A stretch of 62,109 bases of DNA from Deltaproteobacteria bacterium (lineage in GTDB: Bacteria; Desulfobacterota; Syntrophobacteria; BM002). Every line of letters begins with the position of its first letter. Within the stretch, counting starts at the first letter, position 1. A model generated the notes under the pieces. That model had not been told where the DNA came from, did not search any database, and saw only the letters and a list, made by a program, of their open reading frames with translations. This document shows positions 9,724-61,809 of this stretch, piece after piece. The stretch covers positions 2,628,902 through 2,691,010 of the forward strand of contig CP070735.1 in NCBI GenBank assembly GCA_020347625.1, read 5' to 3'. A program made the position numbers and the translations under genes.

Positions 9724-10155
9724 ATGAAAGTGGTTATTGGTAGTGATCATGCAGGCTTTTCCATGAAAACGCACGTCAGGACCTTGCTGGAGAACATGGG
9801 ACACACTGTGGAGGATGTGGGTTGCTACAGTGAAGAATCTGTGGACTACCCAGTCTACGGCAAGGCGGTGGCAACGGGTGTTGCCAGCGGCGAATTTCCC
9901 AAGGGGATTCTCATCTGTGGCTCAGGGCAGGGTATGGCAATGATTGCCAACCGTTTTGTTGGCGTGCGGGCAGCCTTGTGCAACGATCTTTTTAGTGCTG
10001 TTCTGAGCAGGCGGCACAACGACGCCAATCTCCTGGTTATGGGGGGAAGGCTGATCGGAGCCGACTTGGCAGGGGAAATTGTTGCAACCTGGCTGAACAC
10101 AGAGTTTGATGGCGGCCGCCACCAGGGCAGGGTAGCGCAGCTGGATGAAATCTGA
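9724..10155 (+). CDS. rpiB: ribose-5-phosphate isomerase B
   Basis: MKVVIGSDHAGF..CGSGQGM. The ATG at 9724 was chosen because the ORF-track start 9475 overlaps fabF. Confidence 0.88.
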   Translation: MKVVIGSDHAGFSMKTHVRTLLENMGHTVEDVGCYSEESVDYPVYGKAVATGVASGEFPKGILICGSGQGMAMIANRFVGVRAALCNDLFSAVLSRRHNDANLLVMGGRLIGADLAGEIVATWLNTEFDGGRHQGRVAQLDEI

Positions 10156-10156
10156 T

Positions 10157-10320
10157 CATTTGGCATTTGGCATTTCGCGTTTCAAATCTCAAAACTGCAA
10201 TCAAAGAATACAGTAGCCAGTAGTCAAGGGCGAATTACTCCTGTTTGCTTTTCTCCTGAATTCTGACTCCTGACTCCTCACTCTATGCCCCATGCTCCAT
10301 GCCTTCTCACATCTCAAAAA
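10157..10320. repeat. composite heptamer-array element (copy A)
   Basis: CATTTGG x2.., GTAGCCA GTAGTCA, core AGGGCGAATTACTCCTGTTTGC, CTGACTC x2, CCATGCT CCATGCC. Confidence 0.85.
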
Positions 10321-13783: not shown

Positions 13784-13910
13784 GGCATAGGGCATAGAGC
13801 ATAGAGCATGGGGTTCAAACATTTTAAAATTTGAAATTATTGGCCCTGGCTACTGACTACTGCTTTCTATTAATTCGCGTTACGCCTTGAGCCCTGTGCC
13901 TCTAGCCTAA
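13784..13910. repeat. composite heptamer-array element (copy C)
   Basis: GGCATAG GGCATAG AGCATAG AGCATGG...TGGCTAC TGACTAC...TAATTCGC. Confidence 0.8.
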
Positions 13911-14719: not shown

Positions 14720-15952
14720 ATGCCAACCGCAAAAATTGCTGAGGCCCTGGAAGAGATCAGAGAAGGGAAGATGGTTATCCTGGTGGATGATGAGGACCGG
14801 GAAAACGAGGGTGATCTCTGCATGGCTGCCGAAAAGGCGACCCCAGAGGCCATAAACTTTATGGCAAGGTATGGAAGAGGATTGATCTGTCTTTCCTTGA
14901 CAGAGGAAAAGGTTGAGAAACTTCAGCTACCCATGATGGTTTCAAACAATGAGTCTAGGTTCGGGACCGCCTTCACCGTTTCAATCGAGGCTAGACTTGG
15001 GGTCACCACCGGAATCTCTGCTGCTGATCGGGCAACCACCATTCTGACTGCGGTGGACCCCGGCGCAAGACCAGAGGATCTGGTGAGTCCGGGACATGTC
15101 TTCCCCCTTCGGGCTCGAAAGGGCGGTGTATTGGTGCGTACCGGACAGACTGAGGGTTCGGTTGATCTAGCCAGGTTGGCAGGATTGAAGCCTGCCGGAG
15201 TCATTTGCGAGGTTATGAAAGACGATGGCACCATGGCGAGAATGCCTGACTTGGAAATATTTGCCAAGGAGCACGGACTCAAGATCGTTACTATTGCAGA
15301 TATTATCGAGTACAGGATGCGCCACGAGAGCTTTGTTGACCGTGCAGCAGTCACCATGCTGCCCACCATTCATGGCGGTGAATTTCAGGCCATTGTCTAT
15401 ACAAACGACATCGATCCCAGCCAGCACATTGCCCTGGTGAAGGGTGAGCTCAACCCGGATGAAGAGATATTGGTCCGCGTCCACTCAGAATGCCTCACCG
15501 GCGACAGTTTGGGCTCGCTTCGCTGTGATTGTGGAGACCAGTTGCATCGTGCCATGGAGATGGTTAGCGATGAAGGTAAGGGGGTTATCCTTTACATAAC
15601 CAACCAGGAAGGTCGTGGCATAGGTCTCGCCAATAAACTCAAGTCGTATGCTCTCCAGGATCAAGGAAAAGATACGGTGGAGGCCAACGAGGCCTTGGGA
15701 TTCAAGGCTGATTTAAGAGAATACGGGATAGGTGCTCAAATCTTGGTGGACCTTGGGGTCAGAAAGATGCGGCTTATGACCAATAATCCCAAGAAGATCG
15801 TTGGACTGGAAGGTTACGGTATCACCATAACCGAGCGGGTGCCCATCGAGATTCAGCCCAACCCCTGTAACCTTGACTATCTGAAAACTAAATGTTCAAA
15901 GATGGGCCACCTCATGGACCTGACCCAGCAGAAGGAGAAGGAGAATTACTGA
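14720..15952 (+). CDS. ribBA: bifunctional DHBP synthase / GTP cyclohydrolase II
   Basis: RENEGDL (RibB half). CxxxxxxxxxxCxC zinc site and QEGRGIGL (RibA half). Confidence 0.93.
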
Positions 15953-16038
15953 GATTGTAGATTGCAGATTGTGGGATTATATGAATCTTCTGTCTGAACT
16001 TCATTCAATCTGAAATCAAGAATCTAAAATCTGCAATG
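15953..16038. repeat. heptamer-array hairpin element
   Basis: GATTGTA GATTGCA GATTGTG, a loop, then CAATCTG AAATCAA GAATCTA AAATCTG CAATGCA. Confidence 0.85.
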
Positions 16039-20858: not shown

Positions 20859-21088
20859 TAGTCCGTAGTCCGTGGTCAGTGGTCCGTAGCCGGAAAGATT
20901 TCAAAGAAGGTGGACACAGTAAACTGGTATCTGAGCTGACAACACGATATGAGAAGGATCTATATTCTTGGTGTTGTGTCGGTCTGGCAGTAGAGGGAAG
21001 AACGTTGCTGATAGGGGGTAGGGTGCTTGTCCTCTTGTTACGAAAAAATAGATGCTAACGACGACGGACCACGGATCTCTGACAACCG
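20859..21088. repeat. heptamer-array hairpin element
   Basis: TAGTCCG TAGTCCG TGGTCAG TGGTCCG TAGCCGG on the left. CGACGAC GGACCAC GGATCTC on the right. An inner GACAACAC/GTGTTGTG hairpin is also present. Confidence 0.7.
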
Positions 21089-21999: not shown

Positions 22000-22281
22000 T
22001 TACCATTTAAAGCGAACACCCATCCCGTGGGGTCCTCCTTGGTTCTCAGGGCTGGAGATGGTTGACCAGATAACTTCGGCAAAAACCTGCAGGGGTGAGC
22101 CGGTAGGGAGCTCAACGCTCAACAGAAGGCTTTCTTTGGGTTGCAGTGGCTCGTGGCAGCTAATGAAGGCGCCAAGGGTGCTGACGTCTCTCGTTTCTCC
22201 TTCCATGGTACCTTTGGAGGTAATCACCGTAACAGGCCATTCGACTCTTGATCTGTGATATAACCGCTTATCTACGTCCAT
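22000..22281 (-). CDS. PilZ domain protein (c-di-GMP receptor type)
   Basis: RLYHR (RxxxR) and DVSTLG (DxSxxG) motifs. The ATG at 22281 has an AAGAGG RBS. The ORF-track GTG start at 22308 lacks an RBS. Confidence 0.75.
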   Translation of the reverse strand: MDVDKRLYHRSRVEWPVTVITSKGTMEGETRDVSTLGAFISCHEPLQPKESLLLSVELPTGSPLQVFAEVIWSTISSPENQGGPHGMGVRFKW

Positions 22282-22381
22282 TTTAGCCTCTTGCGTCCGC
22301 TTTTGCACTGAGATTATAGTATGTCTCTGACCTCTACATGGTTTTGATCCAGTAAGAAATCAGTCTCTGAATCAGCTTATA

Positions 22382-22971: not shown

Positions 22972-23040
22972 ACAGATTTCAGATTCTAGATTGTAGATTG
23001 CAGATTGCAGAATGGTGTTGTGAGAAGAGGGAAGATAATC
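22972..23040. repeat. heptamer array
   Basis: CAGATTT CAGATTC TAGATTG TAGATTG CAGATTG CAGAATG. Confidence 0.8.
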
Positions 23041-23074: not shown

Positions 23075-23437
23075 TTACAACCGGCGTCGATCAATTTTAA
23101 CGTAACGGTTCTGTACCAGGCTGCGAAGAAAACGGAGGTCGTTCTCGGAAATTTGCGTGAACTGAATGCCCACTCCGTAAGAAGGACTATCTTCGCTAGG
23201 GGTGAGAGTCGTAGACCTGACCACCTTACCGCTAACATTTATTGGCTGGTGGCCGGGGGCTTTAATAACGATGCGAAGATTTTCTTTCAGGGGCGGTACG
23301 TCTTTGCATGAGACAAGCGCGCCAGAGGGACTGACATTTTCTGTCTCTCCCCCTGTTTTGTCTTTGGCAGCCAAGAAAGTCACCGGCCACTTTACATCAG
23401 CTCTGGAGTATCGCCTTCTTTCACGAAAAGCAGACAT
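23075..23437 (-). CDS. PilZ domain protein
   Basis: RRYSR and NVSPSG motifs. The ATG at 23437 was chosen because the upstream part of the ORF runs into a GCATRGG repeat array. Confidence 0.7.
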   Translation of the reverse strand: MSAFRERRRYSRADVKWPVTFLAAKDKTGGETENVSPSGALVSCKDVPPLKENLRIVIKAPGHQPINVSGKVVRSTTLTPSEDSPSYGVGIQFTQISENDLRFLRSLVQNRYVKIDRRRL

Positions 23438-23575
23438 GTTTCGAGCCCTTATTTTTTTCTTTAGAGCAGGGTTAAGAGTCGAGGTAACTTGTGCCGGAAG
23501 CAAGTTTGCACAATGAGCTAAGGGGTATTTTACCATAAAATTCTCATTGGTTAAATAAGGAGTCAGTATAACTGA

Positions 23576-23700
23576 GCATGGGGCATAGGGCATGGGGCAT
23601 AGGGCAAATTCAGAAATCCTTCGCTCTAATCCCTTTGCTTTTTCGCTTTACGCTATGCGCTATGCGCTATGCGACCCTCAATCTGCAATCTGAAATCCCT
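23576..23700. repeat. heptamer-array hairpin element
   Basis: GCATGGG GCATAGG GCATGGG GCATAGG GCAAATTCAGAAATCCTTC...CTATGCG x3 ACCCTCA ATCTGCA ATCTGAA. Confidence 0.85.
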
Positions 23701-25002: not shown

Positions 25003-25545
25003 ATGCAGTGGTCCATCAGGGACAGGCAAATAGTTCTGCTGCAAGGAGATATCACCGAGATGGATACAGATGCCATCGTCAACGCTGCCAACAAGGACTT
25101 GGTTCTGGGAGCAGGTGTAGCTGGCGCCATACGCACCAAAGGAGGCCCTAGTATCCAAGAAGAGTGTAACCGGATAGGTGGTGCTCCGGTGGGAGGGGCA
25201 GCAATAACCACCGGTGGTAATCTCACGGCTAGATATGTAATCCATGCAGTTGGTCCCCGAATGGGGGAGGGTGATGAGGACCGGAAACTGGCGGATGCCA
25301 CCCGGAACAGCTTGAAACTTGCCCATGAAAAAGGGTTGGCAAGCATTGCTTTCCCAGCCATTAGCACCGGGATATTCGGATTTCCTAAAGACCGATGCGC
25401 CAGGATCATGCTTTCAACTGTGGCTGAAAGCTTGAAAAGCGAGGATTTAACTCTAAAACAAGTGGTGTTCTGCCTTTGGGGCGAGGAGACATTGCAGATA
25501 TTTGATGCAGCTGCTAGGGAGTTATTTTCAGGGGAAGATGGGTGA
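25003..25545 (+). CDS. macro domain protein (O-acetyl-ADP-ribose deacetylase, YmdB-like)
   Basis: GDITEMDTDAIVNAAN, GAGVAGAI and AFPAISTGIFGFP motifs. GGGAGGA RBS. Confidence 0.88.
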   Translation: MQWSIRDRQIVLLQGDITEMDTDAIVNAANKDLVLGAGVAGAIRTKGGPSIQEECNRIGGAPVGGAAITTGGNLTARYVIHAVGPRMGEGDEDRKLADATRNSLKLAHEKGLASIAFPAISTGIFGFPKDRCARIMLSTVAESLKSEDLTLKQVVFCLWGEETLQIFDAAARELFSGEDG

Positions 25546-25547
25546 GG

Positions 25548-25945
25548 GGGGATTGTGGATTGCGGATTGAGGGTCGCAGAGAGCAGAGCGCATAGCGCAT
25601 AGCGACAAAGCATGGGGCATGGGGCATGGAGCATGGAGCATAGAGTAAGGAATAAGGAGTGAGGAGTCGGGAGTCAGAATCCAGGAGACAAGCAAACAAG
25701 AGTAATTCGCCCTTAACTACTGGCTACTGACTACTGACTACTGGATTCTTTGATGTAGGATGTGGGATTGCGGATTGCAGATTTCGGATTTGGGAATTCA
25801 GGGAGTATTGTACGTCATTATGTTCCGCTGTCAGTTTTTGTAAATGCCTGCGTGCACAGCGTTTTTTGAGCAGCCGGCTGCTAGCTGTCCGCTGCCTGCT
25901 GGGCAAAACGTCTTACTGCCTACTATCTACTGTCTACTGTCTACT
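25548..25945. repeat. composite heptamer-array element (copy B, about 400 nt)
   Basis: GGATTG units, GCATAGC x2, CATGGGG/CATGGAG x4, TAAGGAA.., core GAGTAATTCGCCC, GCTACTG ACTACTG x2, GGATTGC x2, later CTGCCTG../CTACTGT x2. Confidence 0.85.
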
Positions 25946-26312: not shown

Positions 26313-26399
26313 TGTTGTCTCTCCAAATTTAGGCAGTGGTAATTTCGCATTTTTCATTTACCATTCTTTTGAAACATTGTTATAAGTTCCACCGCCTCG

Positions 26400-26528
26400 A
26401 TCTGCAATGTTAAATGCGAAATGAGAAATACTATCGCCGCGTCACCGCGTCACCGTATCAATACGCTACGCCTGGTGCACAGTTCCTAGTGCCTAGTGCC
26501 TAGTGCTTACTGCGCAAAGCATAGAGCG
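26400..26528. repeat. heptamer arrays (several families in series)
   Basis: ATCTGCA ATGTTAA ATGCGAA ATGAGAA; CGCGTCA CCGCGTC ACC; TCCTAGT GCCTAGT GCCTAGT GCTTACT. Confidence 0.8.
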
Positions 26529-27333: not shown

Positions 27334-27393
27334 CGTTCCCCCAAGAGTAGTCTAGGACAGCATACTACCAGGATTGATATGTTGACAAATGAT

Positions 27394-27462
27394 TTTGCAT
27401 TTCGGATTTGGGATTTGAGATGTGGGATGTGAGGTGTGCAATGCGAAATGAGAAATGCGAAA
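27394..27462. repeat. heptamer arrays
   Basis: TGCATTT CGGATTT GGGATTT GAGATGT GGGATGT GAGGTGT GCAATGC GAAATGA GAAATGC. Confidence 0.8.
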
Positions 27463-27572
27463 GGTTCAATGAAGTTGATCTTTTCGCCCATGTTGTGGTA
27501 AAGTCCACCCCACCAGGTGGATACGGCATACCACTTGGTATTCCTGTCAACTGAGAGAGACTTGACCCAACC

Positions 27573-32165: not shown

Positions 32166-32166
32166 G

Positions 32167-32216
32167 GGCATAGAGCATAGGGCATAGGGCAAATTCAAAA
32201 TCCTTCACCCTATGCT
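32167..32216. repeat. short heptamer-array element
   Basis: GGCATAG AGCATAG GGCATAG GGCAAATTCAAAATCCTTC..CCTATGC. Shares the GCATAGGGCAAATTCA(G)AAATCCTTC unit with 23576..23700. Confidence 0.75.
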
Positions 32217-37508: not shown

Positions 37509-37616
37509 CTGGATGCTGATCGCTGGATGCTAGCCGCTCCAGGTGGGATATGCGATGTGCGATGTGAGATGGGGGATAGGCATGAATTCATCCCACATAT
37601 CAGATCACACATCCAT
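37509..37616. repeat. heptamer-array hairpin element (VWA-phosphoesterase gap)
   Basis: CTGGATG CTGATCG CTGGATG..TGCGATG TGCGATG TGAGATG GGGGATA, loop ggcatgaattca, then TCCCACA TATCAGA TCACACA. Confidence 0.8.
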
Positions 37617-39203: not shown

Positions 39204-39225
39204 GCACTCTATATTGAGACGGGTA

Positions 39226-39424
39226 GTTGTACGTTAAATGTTATTAGTTATACGTTATTAGTTATACGTTATACGTTATGAGTCATACCTTATTCGGTTT
39301 TCACTGCATCTGCAGCGGAAGTCAGTCGTCGAAGAATTCCCCGATCATCAGACTTACTTTTCCCGTTTAACTAATAACTAATAACTAATAACTAATAACT
39401 CTATCTTGCCTAGTGCCTAGTTTT
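39226..39424. repeat. heptamer-array hairpin element (GXGXG-VWA gap)
   Basis: GTTGTAC GTTAAAT GTTATTA GTTATAC GTTATTA GTTATAC GTTATAC GTTATGA on the left. TAACTAA x4-5 then CTAGTGC on the right. Confidence 0.85.
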
Positions 39425-41511: not shown

Positions 41512-41716
41512 AGGGCGCAAGGCGCACGGCACAAGACGTAAGGTGAAAGAAACCTATTAGGAGCTAGAATTCAGGAGCTAGGAGCGAGGGAGGAAATATT
41601 GGGATATCGGTGGTTCTCCTGAATTCTGGCTACTGTCTGCTGGATTCTACGAATTTGCCTTGCGCCTTGTGCCGTGTGCCTTGCGTCACGCACTCAGCGT
41701 GAGCGCTGAGTGCGAA
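41512..41716. repeat. heptamer-array hairpin element
   Basis: GGCGCAAGGCGCACGGCACAAG...AGGAGCTAGAATTCAGGAGCTAGGAGC..CTCCTGAATTCTGGCTACTG...CTTGCGCCTTGTGCCGTGTGCCTTGCG, plus CGCACTCAGCG/CGCTGAGTGCG. Confidence 0.8.
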
Positions 41717-42291: not shown

Positions 42292-42648
42292 CTATGACTT
42301 GGGTAGTTTTGCCTTAAAGTCCTCCAAGGCCATTTGTTCGAGATACTCTCTGTCGTCGGCGGATATCTCGGTAAATTTTACACCGATGATTCGGGGCCGA
42401 TTGGACTGGTCTTTACTGTCTGACCATATAACTATGGCTGCCACCTCCAAGGGTTCCCTCTCGGGAGCCTTTATTGTCATTTGTACCGGTTCATCGAGAT
42501 CCACGTGCTCTGTGCAGCGAATATGAGCTCCTCCAGCACTAATATCTCTCGTTTTCCCTTCCACAAATCCTTTTGAGGTCTCCAATTTGACAGGCCACTC
42601 TACTCTAAGTCTGAAGGACAGACGCTTTTGATCGCCAACCTCAATCAT
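42292..42648 (-). CDS. PilZ domain protein
   Basis: RLSFR and DISAGG motifs. Paralogous to 22000..22281 and 23075..23437. Confidence 0.78.
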   Translation of the reverse strand: MIEVGDQKRLSFRLRVEWPVKLETSKGFVEGKTRDISAGGAHIRCTEHVDLDEPVQMTIKAPEREPLEVAAIVIWSDSKDQSNRPRIIGVKFTEISADDREYLEQMALEDFKAKLPKS

Positions 42649-42855: not shown

Positions 42856-42915
42856 ACAAGGGCAGATAGGTCAAGGCAAAATCTAGATGGTTTCCCTGAA
42901 TATGTCAATTGTTAG

Positions 42916-42960
42916 GTGAATCCGCAATCCGGTATCCGCAATCCAAAATCGATTAATAAT
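42916..42960. repeat. heptamer array
   Basis: GTGAATC CGCAATC CGGTATC CGCAATC CAAAATC. Confidence 0.75.
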
Positions 42961-44130: not shown

Positions 44131-44348
44131 GATGGAGTAATGGAGTGACTAGAAATTCCAAATAACAAATCACAAATCCCAAACAAATCACAATGACCAA
44201 AATTCGAAATTCCAAACCTGTTTTTTGTTTTGGTCATTTGGTATTGGAATTTGAGATTTGTTTGTAATTTGGTGCTTGGAGTTTGGGATTTCATTAACTC
44301 CAACATTCCATCATTCCAGTATTCCACTATTCCAGTACTGCAGTACTC
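44131..44348. repeat. about 220-nt nested heptamer hairpin element (copy S)
   Basis: GGAGT-type outer units. Inner arms CAAATAA CAAATCA CAAATCC CAAACAA... facing ...TTTGAGA TTTGTTT GTAATTT. Positions 44227-44292 are the exact reverse complement of 61575-61640. Confidence 0.9.
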
Positions 44349-44868: not shown

Positions 44869-45038
44869 ATATACTCCTGGTGTTGGTTTGCCTCGGCTAT
44901 AAAGATATTAAGGCAAAAAGATAGGGTGAAAGTCAATCTTGGAATGATTAGGTTAGTAAAAGTAGGGGAGGGATGGGAGGATCGAGGCCATTCCTTCCCT
45001 CGTTCAATCGCGGCTGGAAGCCGCTCCAAGACCAATGA

Positions 45039-45128
45039 AACTAGGCACTAGGAACTATGCACTAGGCACTAAAATGAGCAACCAAATAAGATTTTCTGTG
45101 CTTAGTGCTTAGTGTTTAGTGTCCAGTA
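45039..45128. repeat. heptamer-array hairpin element
   Basis: AACTAGG CACTAGG AACTATG CACTAGG CACTAAA, a loop, then TGCTTAG TGCTTAG TGTTTAG TGTCCAG. Confidence 0.85.
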
Positions 45129-45146
45129 AATCAGAGGAGATTTACC

Positions 45147-45599
45147 ATGAAAACAAAATGTCTAGCATTAATTTTGACGCTCGCCATGGTTGCCTTCGGG
45201 GCAGGAAAGGCTTCGGCTCATTGTGAAATTCCCTGTGGCATCTATGACGATCAGTTACGAACGGATCTAATCGCTGAGCATGCCACCACAATTGAAAAGT
45301 CGATGAAAAAAATTGTGGAGTTGGGCAAGCAAAATCCCGTAAACTACAATCAGCTTGTTCGGTGGGTTTCAAACAAAGAGAAACACGCCAATGAAGTACA
45401 GCATATTGTCACCCAATACTTCATGACCCAGCGTATCAAACCAGATGCCAAGAAATACTCGGAAAAATTGACCGTTTTGCATCAAATGTTGATTGCAGCT
45501 ATGAAGTGTAAGCAGACTGCTGATCTCTCCAACGTGAATACCCTTCGGTCACTGCTGAAGGAATTTGAAATTCTCTATTTCGATCATACACACAAGTAA
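45147..45599 (+). CDS. sodN: nickel superoxide dismutase with Sec-type signal peptide
   Basis: Ni-hook HCEIPCGIYD immediately after MKTKCLALILTLAMVAFGAGKASA. GAGGAG RBS. Confidence 0.85.
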   Translation: MKTKCLALILTLAMVAFGAGKASAHCEIPCGIYDDQLRTDLIAEHATTIEKSMKKIVELGKQNPVNYNQLVRWVSNKEKHANEVQHIVTQYFMTQRIKPDAKKYSEKLTVLHQMLIAAMKCKQTADLSNVNTLRSLLKEFEILYFDHTHK

Positions 45600-45670
45600 T
45601 GGGAGAGAGGTGGTGTGGGCCGATTCGGCCCATATGTCTCTGACACAGGGGTAGAACGGGAAAGCTCTTG

Positions 45671-51199: not shown

Positions 51200-51859
51200 A
51201 TGGCAAAGATCGGTGTGCTTCTCTCAGGATGTGGCGTATTTGACGGTGCAGAAATACATGAGGCTGTGCTAACCATGCTGGCGCTGGACCGGGCCGGCGC
51301 TACAATTGTCTGCATGGCACCAGATGTCGACCAGTACCACGTGGTCAATCACCTAACACAGGAAGAAATGACTGAAAAGCGGAACGTGCTGGTGGAATCA
51401 GCTCGCATTGCCCGTGGCGAGATAAAGGATCTCAAAGATGTCAAAGCTGCTGATTTGGATGGTCTGATCATGCCCGGTGGGTTCGGCGCGGCTAAGAACC
51501 TGAGCGACTTTGCCTTCAAGGGTGCAGAATCCACTGTCGAAGCCGAGGTAAAACGGATCCTCGAGGAAATGTCGGCGGCTAGTAAACCCATTGGTGCGAT
51601 CTGTATCTCCCCGGCTCCCTTGGCCAAAGCGCTTTCTGCCAAGAAACCCGAGGTGACCATCGGAAACGATCAATCCACTGCAGAGGCCATTGAAGCCATG
51701 GGCGGTCAGCACAAAACTTGCACGGTGGATATGATTCATGTGGACGGTGCAAACAAAGTGGTCACCACACCTGCCTACATGCTGGGGCCTGGCATCAAAG
51801 ACGTGGCAGTCGGTATTGAGAAGTTGGTGCACAAGGTGCTTGAACTTGCCGGGGGTTAG
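51200..51859 (+). CDS. elbB: ElbB-type DJ-1/PfpI family glyoxalase
   Basis: MAKIGVLLSGCGVFDGAEIHE N-terminus and GAICISP nucleophile elbow. Confidence 0.82.
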   Translation: MAKIGVLLSGCGVFDGAEIHEAVLTMLALDRAGATIVCMAPDVDQYHVVNHLTQEEMTEKRNVLVESARIARGEIKDLKDVKAADLDGLIMPGGFGAAKNLSDFAFKGAESTVEAEVKRILEEMSAASKPIGAICISPAPLAKALSAKKPEVTIGNDQSTAEAIEAMGGQHKTCTVDMIHVDGANKVVTTPAYMLGPGIKDVAVGIEKLVHKVLELAGG

Positions 51860-52084: not shown

Positions 52085-52561
52085 ATGGAAGAGGGCAGGG
52101 GCAAGAGAAGGAGTTTGCGGGTTCCGGTTCATCTTGATGTACGTTGTGACCTGGCTGACGGATCCACTATTAAAGCTAAAATCATCAACTTGGGCACGGA
52201 GGGCATTTTTGCTAAATCAGTCGATCCAATCAGCCCTGGCGATAGCATAACCCTAGAGTTCCTTTTGCCGGGCACCCTCAATTCAATCAAGCTGGCCGGA
52301 GAAGTGATGTATTCTCGCACTCAGGAGGGGGAACAAGACTCGGATGAAGATTTCCATGTGGCGGGTATTAAGTTCATCGATCTTGCAGAGCCTTATCACA
52401 CCCTGATTCGAGATTATACGCTCAAAATGCTGGACAACGAGGAGATTTTACGTGACGGGGGAATTCTCCACGTGCTCGACGACATCCGTAATCTCCCGCC
52501 TTCAGACAGGTTAAAGGCTTACCATGTCCTGATCAAGAAGGGCTCAGGGCCGGTGGGTTGA
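52085..52561 (+). CDS. PilZ domain protein (partly degenerate second motif)
   Basis: RRSLR is present. The second motif reads NLGTEG instead of D/NxSxxG. Confidence 0.65.
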   Translation: MEEGRGKRRSLRVPVHLDVRCDLADGSTIKAKIINLGTEGIFAKSVDPISPGDSITLEFLLPGTLNSIKLAGEVMYSRTQEGEQDSDEDFHVAGIKFIDLAEPYHTLIRDYTLKMLDNEEILRDGGILHVLDDIRNLPPSDRLKAYHVLIKKGSGPVG

Positions 52562-52715
52562 TTGTAGATTTAAGATTGTAAATTTAAGATTTAAGATTGG
52601 GGAATCCTTCTTTGGTGCTTTTCTTTCTGATAGCTATCTGAAGTAACCTCAGCATTAGGTTACAGGTAACAAATTACCTAAATCCGCAATCCGCAATCTG
52701 TAATCCGGAATCGAG
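52561..52715. repeat. heptamer-array hairpin element
   Basis: TGTAGAT TTAAGAT TGTAAAT TTAAGAT TTAAGAT on the left. CCTAAAT CCGCAAT CCGCAAT CTGTAAT CCGGAAT on the right. Confidence 0.8.
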
Positions 52716-55660: not shown

Positions 55661-56667
55661 AACTGCCTCCGTGTTATGCTCGAGCAATCCTTCGAATCCA
55701 GAGGAATGTTTTCCGCGCCCGAATTCGTTGCAAATAATTTAAGAATAGATTTACACTTGTCGACCCCTGGCCTACACGATTCACGAAAAGAGAAAGACAA
55801 ACTGTTTAGTAATCTCACCCGGAGATAATAGATTACTTTATGCCCTTATAATGGAATCAGGATAAATTCCCCGAGGAATCTCCCACCCCAAAAAGAATGA
55901 CGAGATTCTTCCCAGCTACGCTTGTCAGAATGACATCCTAATTCTGACATTTGCATATAAACACTAATTGGATCGAATTTATAGCCTTTAAGTAGCTATT
56001 TTATGTATCAGTGAAATGCTCGTTTTTGTATGTCAATATCGTGTTAAAAATCACTGCTGACTAAACAGTTAAATTATATCGATTAATTTGTAATTATCAT
56101 TAAATCATACTTGTTGCGTAGTTTATTGTGATGACAGGTCACCATTTGTTTATATGTCATAATTGACATAACTGTTTATTCTTGACAGTGAGATGGAATG
56201 TGCTATTTTTGTAGCCAAGATATTGCCGTAATTGGATTATTGGTTCATTTATTCACCTTATCCCTACTTCAAAGCGCCCCGAGCGCCAAGCATTCTGTGA
56301 AGCAGAGAATTCCTGAATTAGTGCGGTAACTAGATCGGACAGATGCTAAGGAAACTAATACTTTGCTTCATCGTTATTCCTTGAGTTGCCTACCTGGACT
56401 GAATTGGAGGGCAGAACGTATTCTGCTCTGGCGGCGAAGTTTGCATCCTATTCCTTTTTTTAGGTCTGATGCCTGCGTTCCTGAAACGGAATTGATAGCG
56501 AGTCAAAGGATCGACGGTTGCAACGGCAGGCGCAGGATTAAATGAACGGATAGTCAGAGGTGTTTGTCCACCTCTGACAAGGGAAAGGAGGTGTTAAGAG
56601 TCAATAACTGACACGAAGCAGAGTTGAATTGCACCGATGTTTCATGAAAGGAGGGCAAATTAGACCC

Positions 56668-59600
56668 ATGCAGATCACGAGAAGAGATTTCATGAAGATC
56701 TCTGGTGCAGCAGTAGGTGGCCTTGCTCTCGGTGGATTGGGTTTCAACCTGACACCGGTCAAGGCACACGCCAAGGCGCTCAAAATTGCCTGGGCGAAGG
56801 AAACTACCACCATCTGCCCCTACTGCGCCGTTGGTTGTGGCATTATTGCACACACCGCCAGAGATGGGTCGGGCAAGCTTATTAACACCGAGGGCGATCC
56901 AGACCACCCCATCAACCAGGGTTCCCTATGCGCCAAGGGTGCAGCCCTTTATCAACTTGTCACTGAGGACAGCAGGGTCAAGACGGTTCTCTACCGAGCC
57001 CCATACAGTAGCAAGTGGGAAAGGAAATCCTGGGATTGGGCCCTGAGCGAGATTGCCAAGCGGGTGAAGCGAAGCCGTGATGCCAGCTTCACAGCCAAGA
57101 ACAGCAAGGGCCAGCTGGTCAATCGGACCAATGGTATCGCCCACGTGGGTAGCGCCGCCCTTGATAACGAGGAATGTTGGGCGCTTCAGGCGATGATGCG
57201 TGCCCTGGGCCTGGTTTACATTGAACATCAGGCCCGTATCTGACACAGCGCCACTGTTGCGGCTCTGGCAGAGTCGTTCGGACGCGGCGCAATGACCAAT
57301 CATTGGATTGACATCGGCAACAGCGACTGCATCCTGGTGATGGGAAGCAACGCTGCCGAAAACCATCCCATCTCCATGAAATGGGTTATGAAAGCCATGG
57401 AGAATGGGGCAACCCTTCTAAGTGTTGATCCCCGTTTTACCCGGACCTCAGCCAAGGCGGATTTTTACACGGCTTTGCGTTCAGGGACCGACATCGCCTT
57501 CTTGGGCGGGATGATCAACTACATTATCGAAAATGAACTCTTTTTCAGCGAGTACCTGGCCTGGTACACCAACGCCAGTTTCATTCTGGGCGGCAAGTAC
57601 GGGTTCGAAGATGGCCTCTTTGCAGGTTACAACCCGCAAACCCGCTCCTACGACAAGTCCTACTGGGCTTTTGAAAGGGAGCCGAGCGGTATTCCCAAAA
57701 AGGACGTCACTCTCAGGCACCCGCGTTGCGTGTTCCAGCAGCTGAAGAAGCATTTTTCCCGTTACACCCTTGATAAAGTCTCGGCCATTACCGGCACACC
57801 CGAAGAGGATCTGCTCAAAGTCTACAAGACCTATGCGGCCTCAGGTGAAAAGGGCAAGGCCGCCACAATCATGTACGCCATGGGCTGGACTCAGCACACT
57901 GTAGGCGTCCAGAACATTCGGGCCATGGCCATTATCCAGTTGCTTCTTGGCAACATGGGAGTGGCCGGCGGCGGGGTGAATGCGCTTCGCGGTGAGTCCA
58001 ATGTCCAGGGCTCCACGGATCACTGCCTGCTCTGGCACATCTGGCCCGGCTACCTGAAGACACCCAGGTCATCCAACGTTTCGTTGGAAGCTTACAACAA
58101 GAAGTGGACTCCGAAGACCAGCGATCCACTCAGCGCCAACTGGTGGGGTAATTATCCCAAGTATTCGGTGAGTTTTCTCAAGTCCATGTTCGGTGTAAAT
58201 GCCACTCAGAAGACCGATTTCGGCTACGACTGGTTGCCCAAGGCAGATGATGGGAAAACATACTCGTGGCTGGATCTGTTTGATGCCATGTACAGAGGTG
58301 AATTCACCGGCTTCTTTGCCTGGGGCCAGAATCCGGCCTGCTCCGGCGCCAATGCCAACAAGAACCGCAAGGCATTTGCCAAGCTGGACTGGATGGTAAA
58401 CGTCAACCTGTTTGATAACGAAACCGGCTCGTTCTGGTATGGCCCGGGAATGGACCCCAAGAAGATCAAGACCGAGGTCTTCTTCCTGCCAGCTGCTGCT
58501 TCCGTGGAAAAGGAAGGCTCCATTACCAACAGTGGTCGCTGGAGTCAGTGGCGTTACAAGGCGACGGATGCGCCCGGAGATGCCCGACCTGACGGCGATA
58601 TCATGGTAGAGCTTTTCGATAAGATTCGGGCGCTTTACCGGAGAAGGAGAGGGGTTTTCCCAACGCCCATCCTGAACCTCAAGTGGGACTATACCACCAA
58701 CGGTAAGTTCGATGCCCACAAGGTGGCAAAGGAGATCAACGGCTACTTTCAGCGGGATGTCACCGTCAAGGGCAAGAACTTCAAGGCGGGGACCTTGGTT
58801 CCCAGTTTCGCCTTCCTGCAGGCGGACGGCTCCACCTCATCGGGTAACTGGCTCTACTGCCAGAGTTACACTGAAAAGGGGAATATGGCAGCGCGCCGCA
58901 GCACCGTGGATAAATCCGGTATCGGTCTCTACTCTGAGTGGTCCTGGTGCTGGCCGGTGAACCGTCGGATTATCTACAACCGGGCCTCGGTGAATCGAAG
59001 AGGCGTGCCCTGGGATCAGGAGCATCCGGTGATTCGCTGGACCGGGGAGAAATGGGCAGGTGATGTGCCTGATGGCGGCTGGCCGCCCATGCTCGACGCC
59101 GACGGCAAGCTGAACCCCAAGACCAAGTACCCCTTCATTATGAAGCCGGAAGGCCATGCTCATGTGTTCGGACCGGGGCGCGCTGACGGGCCCTTTCCCG
59201 AGCACTACGAGCCGCTGGAGTGTCCCATCGAGAAGAACTTGATGAGTGCGCAGTTCGTCAATCCAACCATCAAGGAATTCACCACAGCCGCAGACGCCCG
59301 GGCCACCTGCGATCCACGCTACCCAATAGTTGCCTCGACCTACCGGGTCACCGAGCACTGGCAGACCGGTGTTTTGACCCGCTGGCAGCCTTGGCTCTTG
59401 GAAGCGCAGCCCCAGTCGTTCTGCGAGATGAGTGAAGAGCTAGGAAAGCTAAGGGGCATCCGGAACGGTGACAAGGTTATTGTGGAGTCGGCACGTGGAA
59501 AAGTGGAAGCGGTGGCAATTGTGACCAAACGCTTCCGACCCTTCAAGATTGCCGGTGCCACGATTCATCAAGTGGGATTGCCCTGGTGTTATGGCTGGGT

Positions 59601-59712
59601 CACGCCCAAGGACGGCGGTGACAGTTCAAACTTGCTCACTCCTTCCATCGGTGATCCCAATACGTTGATCCCGGAAACCAAGGCCTTTATGGTCAATGTC
59701 AGGAAGGCATAG
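56668..59712 (+). CDS. fdnG: formate dehydrogenase catalytic subunit, selenocysteine-containing, Tat-exported
   Basis: Tat motif TRRDFMK. CPYCAVGCG [4Fe-4S] motif. In-frame TGA at 57241-57243 in the context HQARI-U-HSATVAALAESFGRGAMTN. ORFs 56629..57243 and 57292..59712 share one frame. Confidence 0.9.
57244..57275 (+). promoter_or_regulatory. candidate SECIS stem-loop just 3' of the UGA
   Basis: CUGUU (57254-57258) can pair with GGCAG (57267-57271). Only hand-folded and weak. Confidence 0.3.
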
Positions 59713-61537: not shown

Positions 61538-61733
61538 GAGAGTACTACTGAGTGGCTGGAGTGTTGGAGTCTGTGAAATCCCAAACTCCAAGCACCAAAT
61601 TACAAACAAATCTCAAATTCCAATACCAAATGACCAAAACAGTTTTGGAATTTTGAATTTTGGTCATTGTGATTTGTTTGATATTTGATATTTGAGATTT
61701 GGAATTTCTATTATTTCACTAATCCGTTACTCC
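61538..61733. repeat. about 200-nt nested heptamer hairpin element (copy T, inverted relative to S)
   Basis: 61575-61640 is the exact reverse complement of 44227-44292. The other arm and the outer GGAGT/ACTCC units are also collinear with copy S. Confidence 0.9.
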
Positions 61734-61809
61734 CGAAGCGATTGAAGTGGAAGGAACTGAGAGCCTGCGTTGATGATGCTCTATAGTCAGCTTGGCCGTG
61801 TGTTGCGCC

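Follow-up and report, generated by a model that had tools for sequence, protein, structure and literature searches.

Short tandemly repeated repetitive (STRR) heptamers were reportedly described in filamentous cyanobacteria by Mazel et al. in 1990. STRR are simple arrays of one 7-nt unit repeated in tandem in intergenic DNA, and where two such arrays face each other a hairpin forms between the genes, as with hupS and hupL (PMC2670836). Other intergenic repeats of period 7, with many sites per genome and a patchy distribution over phyla, are TAACTGA in Beggiatoaceae (PMC4679880) and the GGACCGG and MTYCTGA heptanucleotide elements of Geobacter metallireducens (PMC2700814); these are mostly short direct arrays of 2–6 units, often situated just 5' of start codons. 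Tandem heptamers are the most abundant prokaryotic intergenic repeat, for whose function there is 'no clear clue' (PMC6344855), and intergenic heptamers are abundant and unexplained in the literature (PMC6344855, PMC4679880, PMC2700814, PMC4692102, PMC2670836); the papers on heptamers and STRR that we found contain nothing accounting for function. REP, BIME and REPIN sequences are extragenic, non-coding, many-copy imperfect palindromes forming hairpins, which are often nested or mosaic, occur in either orientation, have a consensus common to related species and break short-read assemblies (Bertels and Rainey 2011, PMC3116915).

Here we analysed a stretch of 62,109 nt (the window) containing two copies, e1 and e2, of a long hairpin element. 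In its behaviour the element is closest to REP/BIME/REPIN and in its construction to the cyanobacterial STRR hairpins, and it lacks defining features of both. Like the former it is an extragenic multi-copy palindrome, both window copies being intergenic and folding as hairpins with z-scores of −4.5 to −5.7. However, REP units are G+C-rich, non-heptameric, 20–40 nt long and marked by a conserved tetranucleotide at the 5' end (PMC3116915), while the arms here are heptamer arrays of 65–70 nt; a REPIN consists of two near-identical inverted REPs, while the two arms here are systematically unlike, one constant and the other variable; and a REP system is defined by a flanked RAYT (Y1 transposase) gene, of which none was seen in the window or between the clustered copies of two other loci (L023 and L035). 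With STRR, e1 and e2 share tandem 7-nt units in intergenic DNA; unlike STRR, which are one-unit arrays of filamentous cyanobacteria, the element is a fixed 135-nt succession of different units, and its hosts are Desulfobacterota and other non-cyanobacterial phyla. The element includes the heptamer TTGGTCA (TTTTGGTCATT), a published STRR unit. From the TAACTGA, GGACCGG and MTYCTGA heptamers it differs in being a long asymmetric hairpin with an invariant arm. MITEs such as Correia/NEMIS of Neisseria and Nezha of cyanobacteria are dispersed, non-autonomous, AT-rich palindromes of 100–300 nt, derived from an insertion sequence and bounded by defined terminal inverted repeats and target-site duplications. 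The element resembles them in size, AT-richness, palindromy, dispersal and presence/absence differences between relatives; unlike them it has no sharp ends or duplications, and no parent element was found.

We consider it probable (about 0.6) that e1 and e2 are two copies of a dispersed, non-coding, AT-rich palindromic repeat family, REP/BIME-like and of STRR type, which is kept to one consensus by a reader acting in trans. The family, with its one near-invariant arm, seems to be undescribed, and a literature search with the arm sequence returned unrelated primers only. Each copy has a core of ~135–145 nt made of CAAAnnn/nnnTTTG heptamers, usually inside a GGAGT/ACTCC octamer hairpin. The parts of the two window copies are as follows.

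44134–44151, + strand: e1 outer left layer, a pair of GGAGT octamers (GGAGTAAT GGAGTGAC) followed by TA, pairing with the ACTCC/ATTCC array opposite
44152–44218, + strand: e1 variable arm, GAAATTCC AAAT[AA] CAAAT[CA] CAAAT[CC] CAAACAA ATCACAATGACCAAAATTCGAAATTCCAAAC, hypervariable at the bracketed dinucleotides (alignment A1, column entropies), which are unpaired in the fold
44219–44225, + strand: e1 loop region, with a 7-nt insertion relative to e2 (one slippage unit)
44226–44293, + strand: e1 constant arm in its G/T-rich form, 68 nt identical to e2
44294–44348, + strand: e1 outer right layer, ACTCC/ATTCC octamer array of ~4.5–6 units, with TRF rows of period 8 and 16
61558–61573, + strand: e2 outer layer, GGAGT units (GGAGTGTT GGAGTCTG), from sequence and fold
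61574–61641, − strand: e2 constant arm, C/A-rich on the + strand, its reverse complement identical to 44226–44293
61642–61708, − strand: e2 loop and variable arm, with the complements of the NN dinucleotides on the + strand at 61681-82, 61688-89 and 61695-96
61709–61735, + strand: partner of the e2 outer layer (TATTATTTCACTAATCCGTTACTCCCG), degenerate

Alignment of e1 with e2, possible over ~185 nt, showed that 44226–44293 is the exact reverse complement of 61574–61641. The earlier note had reported an identical 66-nt arm (44227–44292 against 61575–61640); all 66 of 66 positions agreed and the exact match ran one base further on each side. A 26-nt piece of this arm occurred in the window at the two sites in e1 and e2 only, with 0 expected by chance. 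The second arms are collinear, and six of their substitutions fall as three adjacent pairs spaced 7 nt apart.

Dinucleotide 1: AA in e1 (44164-65), CT in e2 (61695-96)
Dinucleotide 2: CA in e1 (44171-72), AT in e2 (61688-89)
Dinucleotide 3: CC in e1 (44178-79), AT in e2 (61681-82)

A seventh difference is G/A (TTCGAAA versus TTCAAAA). The count of seven substitutions, made by eye, was short by one, since an eighth adjoins the loop, and the two loops also differ by a 7-nt indel, which the note had passed over. The outer GGAGT/ACTCC arrays, said to correspond, do so in type only; their period is 8 rather than 7, and unit numbers are unequal between copies and between sides. Period-7 TRF rows cover 44159–44183 and 61677–61701. 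The element has a G+C content of 35%, and the arm contains 27% C and 4.5% G over 66 nt.

Both copies fold as long imperfect hairpins. Compared with shuffled sequence, e1 reached −65 to −70 kcal/mol as RNA (z = −4.5) and −38 kcal/mol as DNA (z = −5.7). The stem consists of 5-bp helices alternating with 2x2 internal loops, in which the variable dinucleotides face AG, TG and AT of the constant arm and are unpaired. Core helices were 91–96% paired across all family copies. No covariation was found in the family alignment, where the paired columns are invariant, so that covariation counts neither for nor against structure. The hairpin was deduced from complementarity, and registers shifted by 7 nt compete; RNAalifold picked such a shifted register. 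Constant-arm residues with no partner in the fold were likewise invariant, and pairing alone therefore cannot account for the constant arm.

Species-representative genomes, one for each species, were scanned for the family with a degenerate pattern from the identical arm in which 20 bases were specified and for which roughly one match was expected by chance; more than 117 stretches matched. At least 13 further species of Desulfobacterota had full copies in unrelated spacers, 85–93% identical to the window copies over 140–190 nt. The draft MAG PPDG01 carried the pattern on seven contigs, and a profile HMM of 136 core positions found exactly two copies in the 62 kb of the window. In a further MAG (Deltaproteobacteria JAFDAP01; L023, 2490–5795) three consecutive spacers, among genes for a solute symporter, an RNase H-like protein, a DUF2784 protein, a TIM-barrel protein and an MFS transporter, each contained a CAAAT-type family hairpin, showing that local density can reach about one copy per gene. 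The same pattern had no match in 2.9 million viral contigs, and blastn of the element against 72,556 plasmids gave none either. Among short-read contigs of the same species, one (L199) terminates inside e2 and another (L001) at a neighbouring hairpin; breaks at these hairpins are expected because the DNA is repeated.

Alignment A1 contained 21 full copies from 13 genomes, at loci chosen for carrying the element. The constant arm (TATTGGAATTTGAGATTTGTTTGTAATTTGGTGCTTGGAGTTTGGGATTTCAT) was near-invariant, with a mean identity of ~93–96% over the 21 copies (96% for its outer 51 nt, against 88% for the partner arm). The variable arm of the family reads GAAATTCC AAAT[NN] CAAAT[NN] CAAAT[NN] CAAACAAAT[N]ACAATGACCAAAATTC[N]AAATTCCAAA and is conserved outside the brackets; the bracketed sites had entropies of 1.0–1.6 bits, and the three NN dinucleotides and the two single sites were the only variable-arm columns above 1 bit. 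The variation at unit positions 6–7, first noticed between e1 and e2, is thus borne out as a property of the whole family, with entropy peaks on the NN of the CAAATnn units. The profile HMM scored 135–148 bits one way and ~40 bits the other. Unit-length changes also occurred: the 7-nt loop block was present in 8 of the 21 copies and the variable arm was one unit shorter in L054 and L095, which indicates that slippage operates. With respect to a second outer layer (AATGGCTTTGCCGGTAAAGAT...), both core orientations occurred, in five and four copies respectively.

Recent copying, gene conversion or strong constraint had been offered for the perfect match of e1 and e2. Strong constraint is the right kind of answer. 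Constant-arm identity was 0.94 within genomes and 0.93 between species (0.90 and 0.88 for the variable arm), copies sharing a genome being no more similar than those of different species. Identical 67-nt constant arms occurred in 3 of 210 family pairs, two of them within one genome; in the loci L056 and L049 they were identical across two species. Flanking genes were only 70–83% identical. In L122, taken from a 63-kb metagenome contig, the constant arm differed from the window by only 4 of 66 positions, as counted from the sequences, while its flanking genes were 70–78% identical. The family could be kept to one consensus across species by selection, by a conserved copying specificity or by transfer, and equal identity within genomes and between species would also fit frequent horizontal transfer.

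Neither transposon-like ends nor a transposase was found. Conservation ends at GAAATTCC and GGGATTTCAT, with ragged flanks and no recurring duplicated bases, and no transposase domain was detected in the 60 ORFs of the window or in the genes between the clustered copies of L023 and L035. Exchange via shared inverted repeat arrays is therefore favoured over transposition. A MITE was rejected for the absence of defined terminal inverted repeats with a target-site duplication. A diversity-generating retroelement was also rejected: the window has no RT domain, the element is non-coding, and the variable sites lie opposite AG, TG and AT rather than A alone. At gathering thresholds of Rfam tRNAs alone passed in the window, and at E <= 1 the element gave weak sub-threshold matches to plant miRNA-precursor hairpins only. 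Promoter and terminator scans showed nothing conserved at the elements, and an intrinsic terminator was rejected since the consensus scan found no short G+C-rich stem with a T-run at either copy.

The window represents ordinary core chromosome from an organism of Desulfobacterota type, and no transposase, integrase or reverse transcriptase was found in it. It contains genes for fatty-acid synthesis, ETF and SHMT; nusB, LeuRS and LptE together with the rib operon; and genes for a sigma-54 activator, rubrerythrin, rubredoxin, an M16 peptidase and a selenocysteine formate dehydrogenase, followed by FdhE. Neither the NTPase nor the FdhB protein has an exact counterpart on record. The catalytic subunit of this dehydrogenase is confirmed as selenocysteine-containing by an in-frame TGA (57241–57243; …EHQARI*HSATV…) joining the ORFs 56629–57243 and 57292–59712. 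The spacer of e1 is bounded by two minus-strand genes, at the stop codon of one for an NTPase and at the start of one for a radical-SAM protein, and the outer right layer of e1 stops 5 nt from the NTPase stop codon. The spacer of e2 lies between the convergent FdhE and AhpC genes.

Heptamer arrays are widespread in the window. TRF reported ~60 tandem arrays of period 7, and nearly every longer spacer has heptamer arrays, with hairpins reaching −98 kcal/mol. At least 20 array regions lie in spacers other than those of e1 and e2, most as opposed arrays folding into hairpins (among them 1205–1680, 10140–10320, 13784–13813, 15930–16032, 20859–20889, 22973–23011, 23576–23697, 25543–25945, 26399–26506, 27391–27464, 32166–32200, 37509–37577, 39225–39421, 41514–41685, 42912–42952, 45040–45121 and 52552–52714). 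Their units vary by spacer (GGGCATA, GATTGCG, AGTTATA, CTGACTC, GCCTAGT and others), and they occur in convergent, tandem and divergent spacers, within the rib operon and beside tRNA genes. Some array families recur in the window, such as 10211–10302 and 25638–25729 (86%). Among the 22 heptamer-array regions, e1/e2 alone matched over more than 110 nt in 1.4 Mb of related DNA, a sample enriched for the family. The window also encodes four small stand-alone PilZ-domain proteins (22000–22308, 23075–23593, 42292–42648 and 52085–52561), several of which adjoin heptamer hairpins.

Comparison with relatives showed what happens at orthologous spacers. The left junction (radical SAM, NTPase, sigma-54 activator) was collinear in L119, L120, L122 and L154, with L122 collinear over 38.0–58.4 kb of the window. 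At the right junction, L201–L204 also have FdhE followed by AhpC on the opposite strand, and L202 was collinear from ~50.3 kb to past this junction. Several of the collinear relatives do not carry the element at these two spacers. In the NTPase/radical-SAM spacer, L122 has a family element within the same GGAGT outer layer as e1, with the core flipped and a small insert nested in the element. In L119 this outer layer surrounds another core (GATTGTA/AATCTnn), and L120 has a GGTGTCA-type hairpin. In the FdhE/AhpC spacer the hairpin is of CAAGGnn type in L200 and of GATTTnA type in L202–L204, and L201 has the outer GGAAT/ATTCC octamer hairpin alone, with a small loop and no core. Over the 20 kb common to the window and L122, arrays were present in both at most spacers, with different units. 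A hairpin is thus always there and its sequence is replaceable, the core being installed, flipped or absent in a persisting outer frame.

Several further observations were made in these relatives. In relatives of ~75–80% identity (37500–58400 against L122; 61486–61810 against L200–L204), orthologous spacers contained heptamer-array hairpins, usually of another unit, and the AATCCGC array at 42919–42944 was retained in L122. The Ni-superoxide dismutase gene (45147–45599), preceded in the window by the heptamer hairpin 45040–45121, was missing at the syntenic position in three relatives (L119, L120 and L122), whose spacer there measures ~180–200 nt against ~720 nt in the window (45030–45668); this suggests that the gene is a lineage-specific insertion beside a hairpin. 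A DJ-1/PfpI-family gene (51200–51859), between ferritin-like and PilZ genes, was absent from L121 (674–1035) and L202 (1022–1498), and in L121 a hairpin-element copy (822–972) lies in the spacer of the missing gene. A second, G+C-rich mini-element of ~40–50 nt (...GAAACT GGGGACCCGCCCGCAGGGTGGGGAGTCC ...GGACAA) occurred inside hairpin copies and in other contexts in relatives, always after TTGAAACT and in either orientation, at 13 places (L009:2880, L013:1346, L022:2604, L025:2064, L060:5319, L063, L067, L075:4587, L088:6141, L089, L122) and nowhere in the window. It resembles the very small dispersed repeats known from cyanobacteria.

e1 and e2 lie in opposite orientation, 17.2 kb apart, with a perfect 68-nt match. 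The idea of the earlier note was that they bracket 44.35–61.5 kb, as the ends of an invertible or mobile segment, or are recent copies of each other; the rarity of identical arms, two of the three pairs being within one genome, would agree with it. We see very little chance of this. Both junctions are collinear in relatives with or without the element, and so the bracketing idea fails. Inverted repeats of an invertible or mobile segment were likewise rejected on the collinear junctions and on the dispersal of the repeats elsewhere. The supposed special pairing of the two loci does not hold for a multi-copy element found in so many species; the note itself had named a common high-copy 66-mer as the result that would speak against bracketing, and the sequence is a common multi-copy one. 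Since the family is dispersed and its core flips, relative orientation is uninformative, and the 68-nt identity is that of the family constant arm and does not tie the 44-kb locus to the one at 61 kb. It is also highly improbable that the arrays are a by-product of mutation only, arising in each spacer independently, by 7-nt slippage and by template switching at small palindromes, and never copied from one site to another. Slippage of this kind would produce the loop indel and the varying unit number of the variable arm, as well as the different units in orthologous spacers, and heptamers are the commonest prokaryotic intergenic tandem repeat (PMC6344855). It cannot produce the same non-repetitive order of units over 135 nt, 85–93% identical, in 14 or more species at sites that are not orthologous. 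The element is also the only one of the 22 array regions in the window with matches above 110 nt in the 1.4 Mb, many loci of which were selected for carrying it. An origin by mutation only is contradicted for the e1/e2 family and may still hold for the short site-specific arrays.

Readings that assign the element a product or a binding partner were weighed on its placement and anatomy. As a cis-acting RNA element, the hairpin or its G-poor, C/A-rich arm would end or stabilise transcripts, serving as an mRNA 3'-end protector or as a bidirectional Rho-loading or pause site at transcription-unit ends. Both window copies directly follow a gene, whose transcription would reach the C/A-rich constant arm first, e2 sits between convergent genes, the arms are poor in G, the RNA fold is stable, and STRR hairpins of cyanobacteria have been proposed as transcript stabilisers (PMC2670836); even so we regard this reading as rather unlikely. 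Neither copy has a G+C-rich stem with a U-tract, e1 is 36 nt upstream of the next same-strand gene, the core is flipped at an orthologous site, the window has heptamer arrays within the rib operon and in divergent spacers as well, and a sequence-specific RNA reader would be blind to the same arm in both orientations. The upstream gene was co-directional in 20 cases and opposite in 13, no clear bias, in a weak test with rough gene calls on a crude ORF map. Alternatively, a dimeric protein, ribbon-helix-helix or nucleoid-associated, might bind the double-stranded DNA one 7-bp unit at a time and polymerise along the seven or eight units of the constant arm, the partner arm being its degenerate mirror image. 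In plasmid pSM19035 the omega repressor binds WATCACW heptads that lie side by side, and AATCACA, the commonest variable-arm unit, may be compared with them. An array of this kind would accord with the strict 7-bp period, with the indifference to orientation and spacer type and with the constraint on all positions of one arm, including unpaired ones. We nevertheless hold it improbable, since the AATCACA units are in the variable and not the constant arm, a binding site in one arm needs no conservation of paired positions in both, the dozens of unrelated heptamer units per genome cannot each have their own protein, and no candidate protein was found. That the constant arm codes for a small protein, on the C/A-rich strand (MKSQTPSTKLQTNLKFQYQMTKT...) with GGAG units upstream, is scarcely credible: ATGAAATCC follows a GGAGT unit in most copies, but the start is GTG, ATA, GTT or GTC in several (including e2 and L122) and the ATG is missing from distant family members, the frame runs into the loop and is shifted by the 7-nt indel, and the few substitutions have no synonymous preference.

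Hairpins with the same outer stem were also found on contigs assigned to KSB1, Saccharibacteria, Aminicenantes, Planctomycetota, Bacteroidales, Nitrospirae and Gammaproteobacteria, some of them 200 kb to 1.4 Mb long. The G+C content of the fetched loci ranged from 39% to 63%. The stem common to Desulfobacterota, KSB1, Saccharibacteria, Aminicenantes and a gammaproteobacterium, even at 63% G+C, reads AAATTCC AAATnn CAAATnn CAAATnn CAAACAA on one side and TTGTTTG nnATTTG GTGCTTG nnGTTTG GnATTT on the opposite side. The arm asymmetry was retained in L005, L113, L016, L035 and L091 (76–93 bits one way, 40–48 the other), and other copies were symmetric by the profile HMM. As these loci were picked by the constant-arm pattern, the conservation of that arm outside Desulfobacterota looks inflated, and independent evidence comes only from the unselected partner arm and from second copies in the same loci; a one-sided CAAGCAC unit was present in some of these second copies and absent from others. 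It is possible, though we think it unlikely, that the element belongs to an unrecognised class of asymmetric heptamer-array hairpins spanning phyla. One arm constrained in sequence despite free orientation would then imply a conserved trans-acting reader of 7-nt units, and such a reader, if real, would give a first handle on why heptamers are the commonest intergenic repeat of prokaryotes.

Returning to the preferred reading, a dispersed REP/BIME-like family of STRR type, the element would work as a DNA or RNA hairpin indifferent to orientation. The paired positions of both arms and all positions of the constant arm would be held to a single consensus in every copy and species by a trans reader of the sequence, which might be a host factor or else the enzyme responsible for copying the element. 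In the partner arm, the dinucleotides left unpaired would be free and saturated with change. Copies are probably installed into, flipped within and lost from pre-existing hairpin spacers. Judging from the anatomy, recombination or conversion through shared repeat arrays is the most likely route, over cut-and-paste transposition. For practical work, the elements break short-read assemblies, and an inverted repeat of this kind must not be read as marking where a mobile or invertible segment ends. Since tandem heptamers have had no explained function, the family is an unusually informative bait for whatever reads or copies 7-nt units: it combines a long fixed order of units with orientation indifference and free positions at exact 7-nt spacing, one of its arms is conserved between species whose genes are only 70–83% identical, and orthologous spacers always retain some heptamer hairpin while its sequence is replaced.
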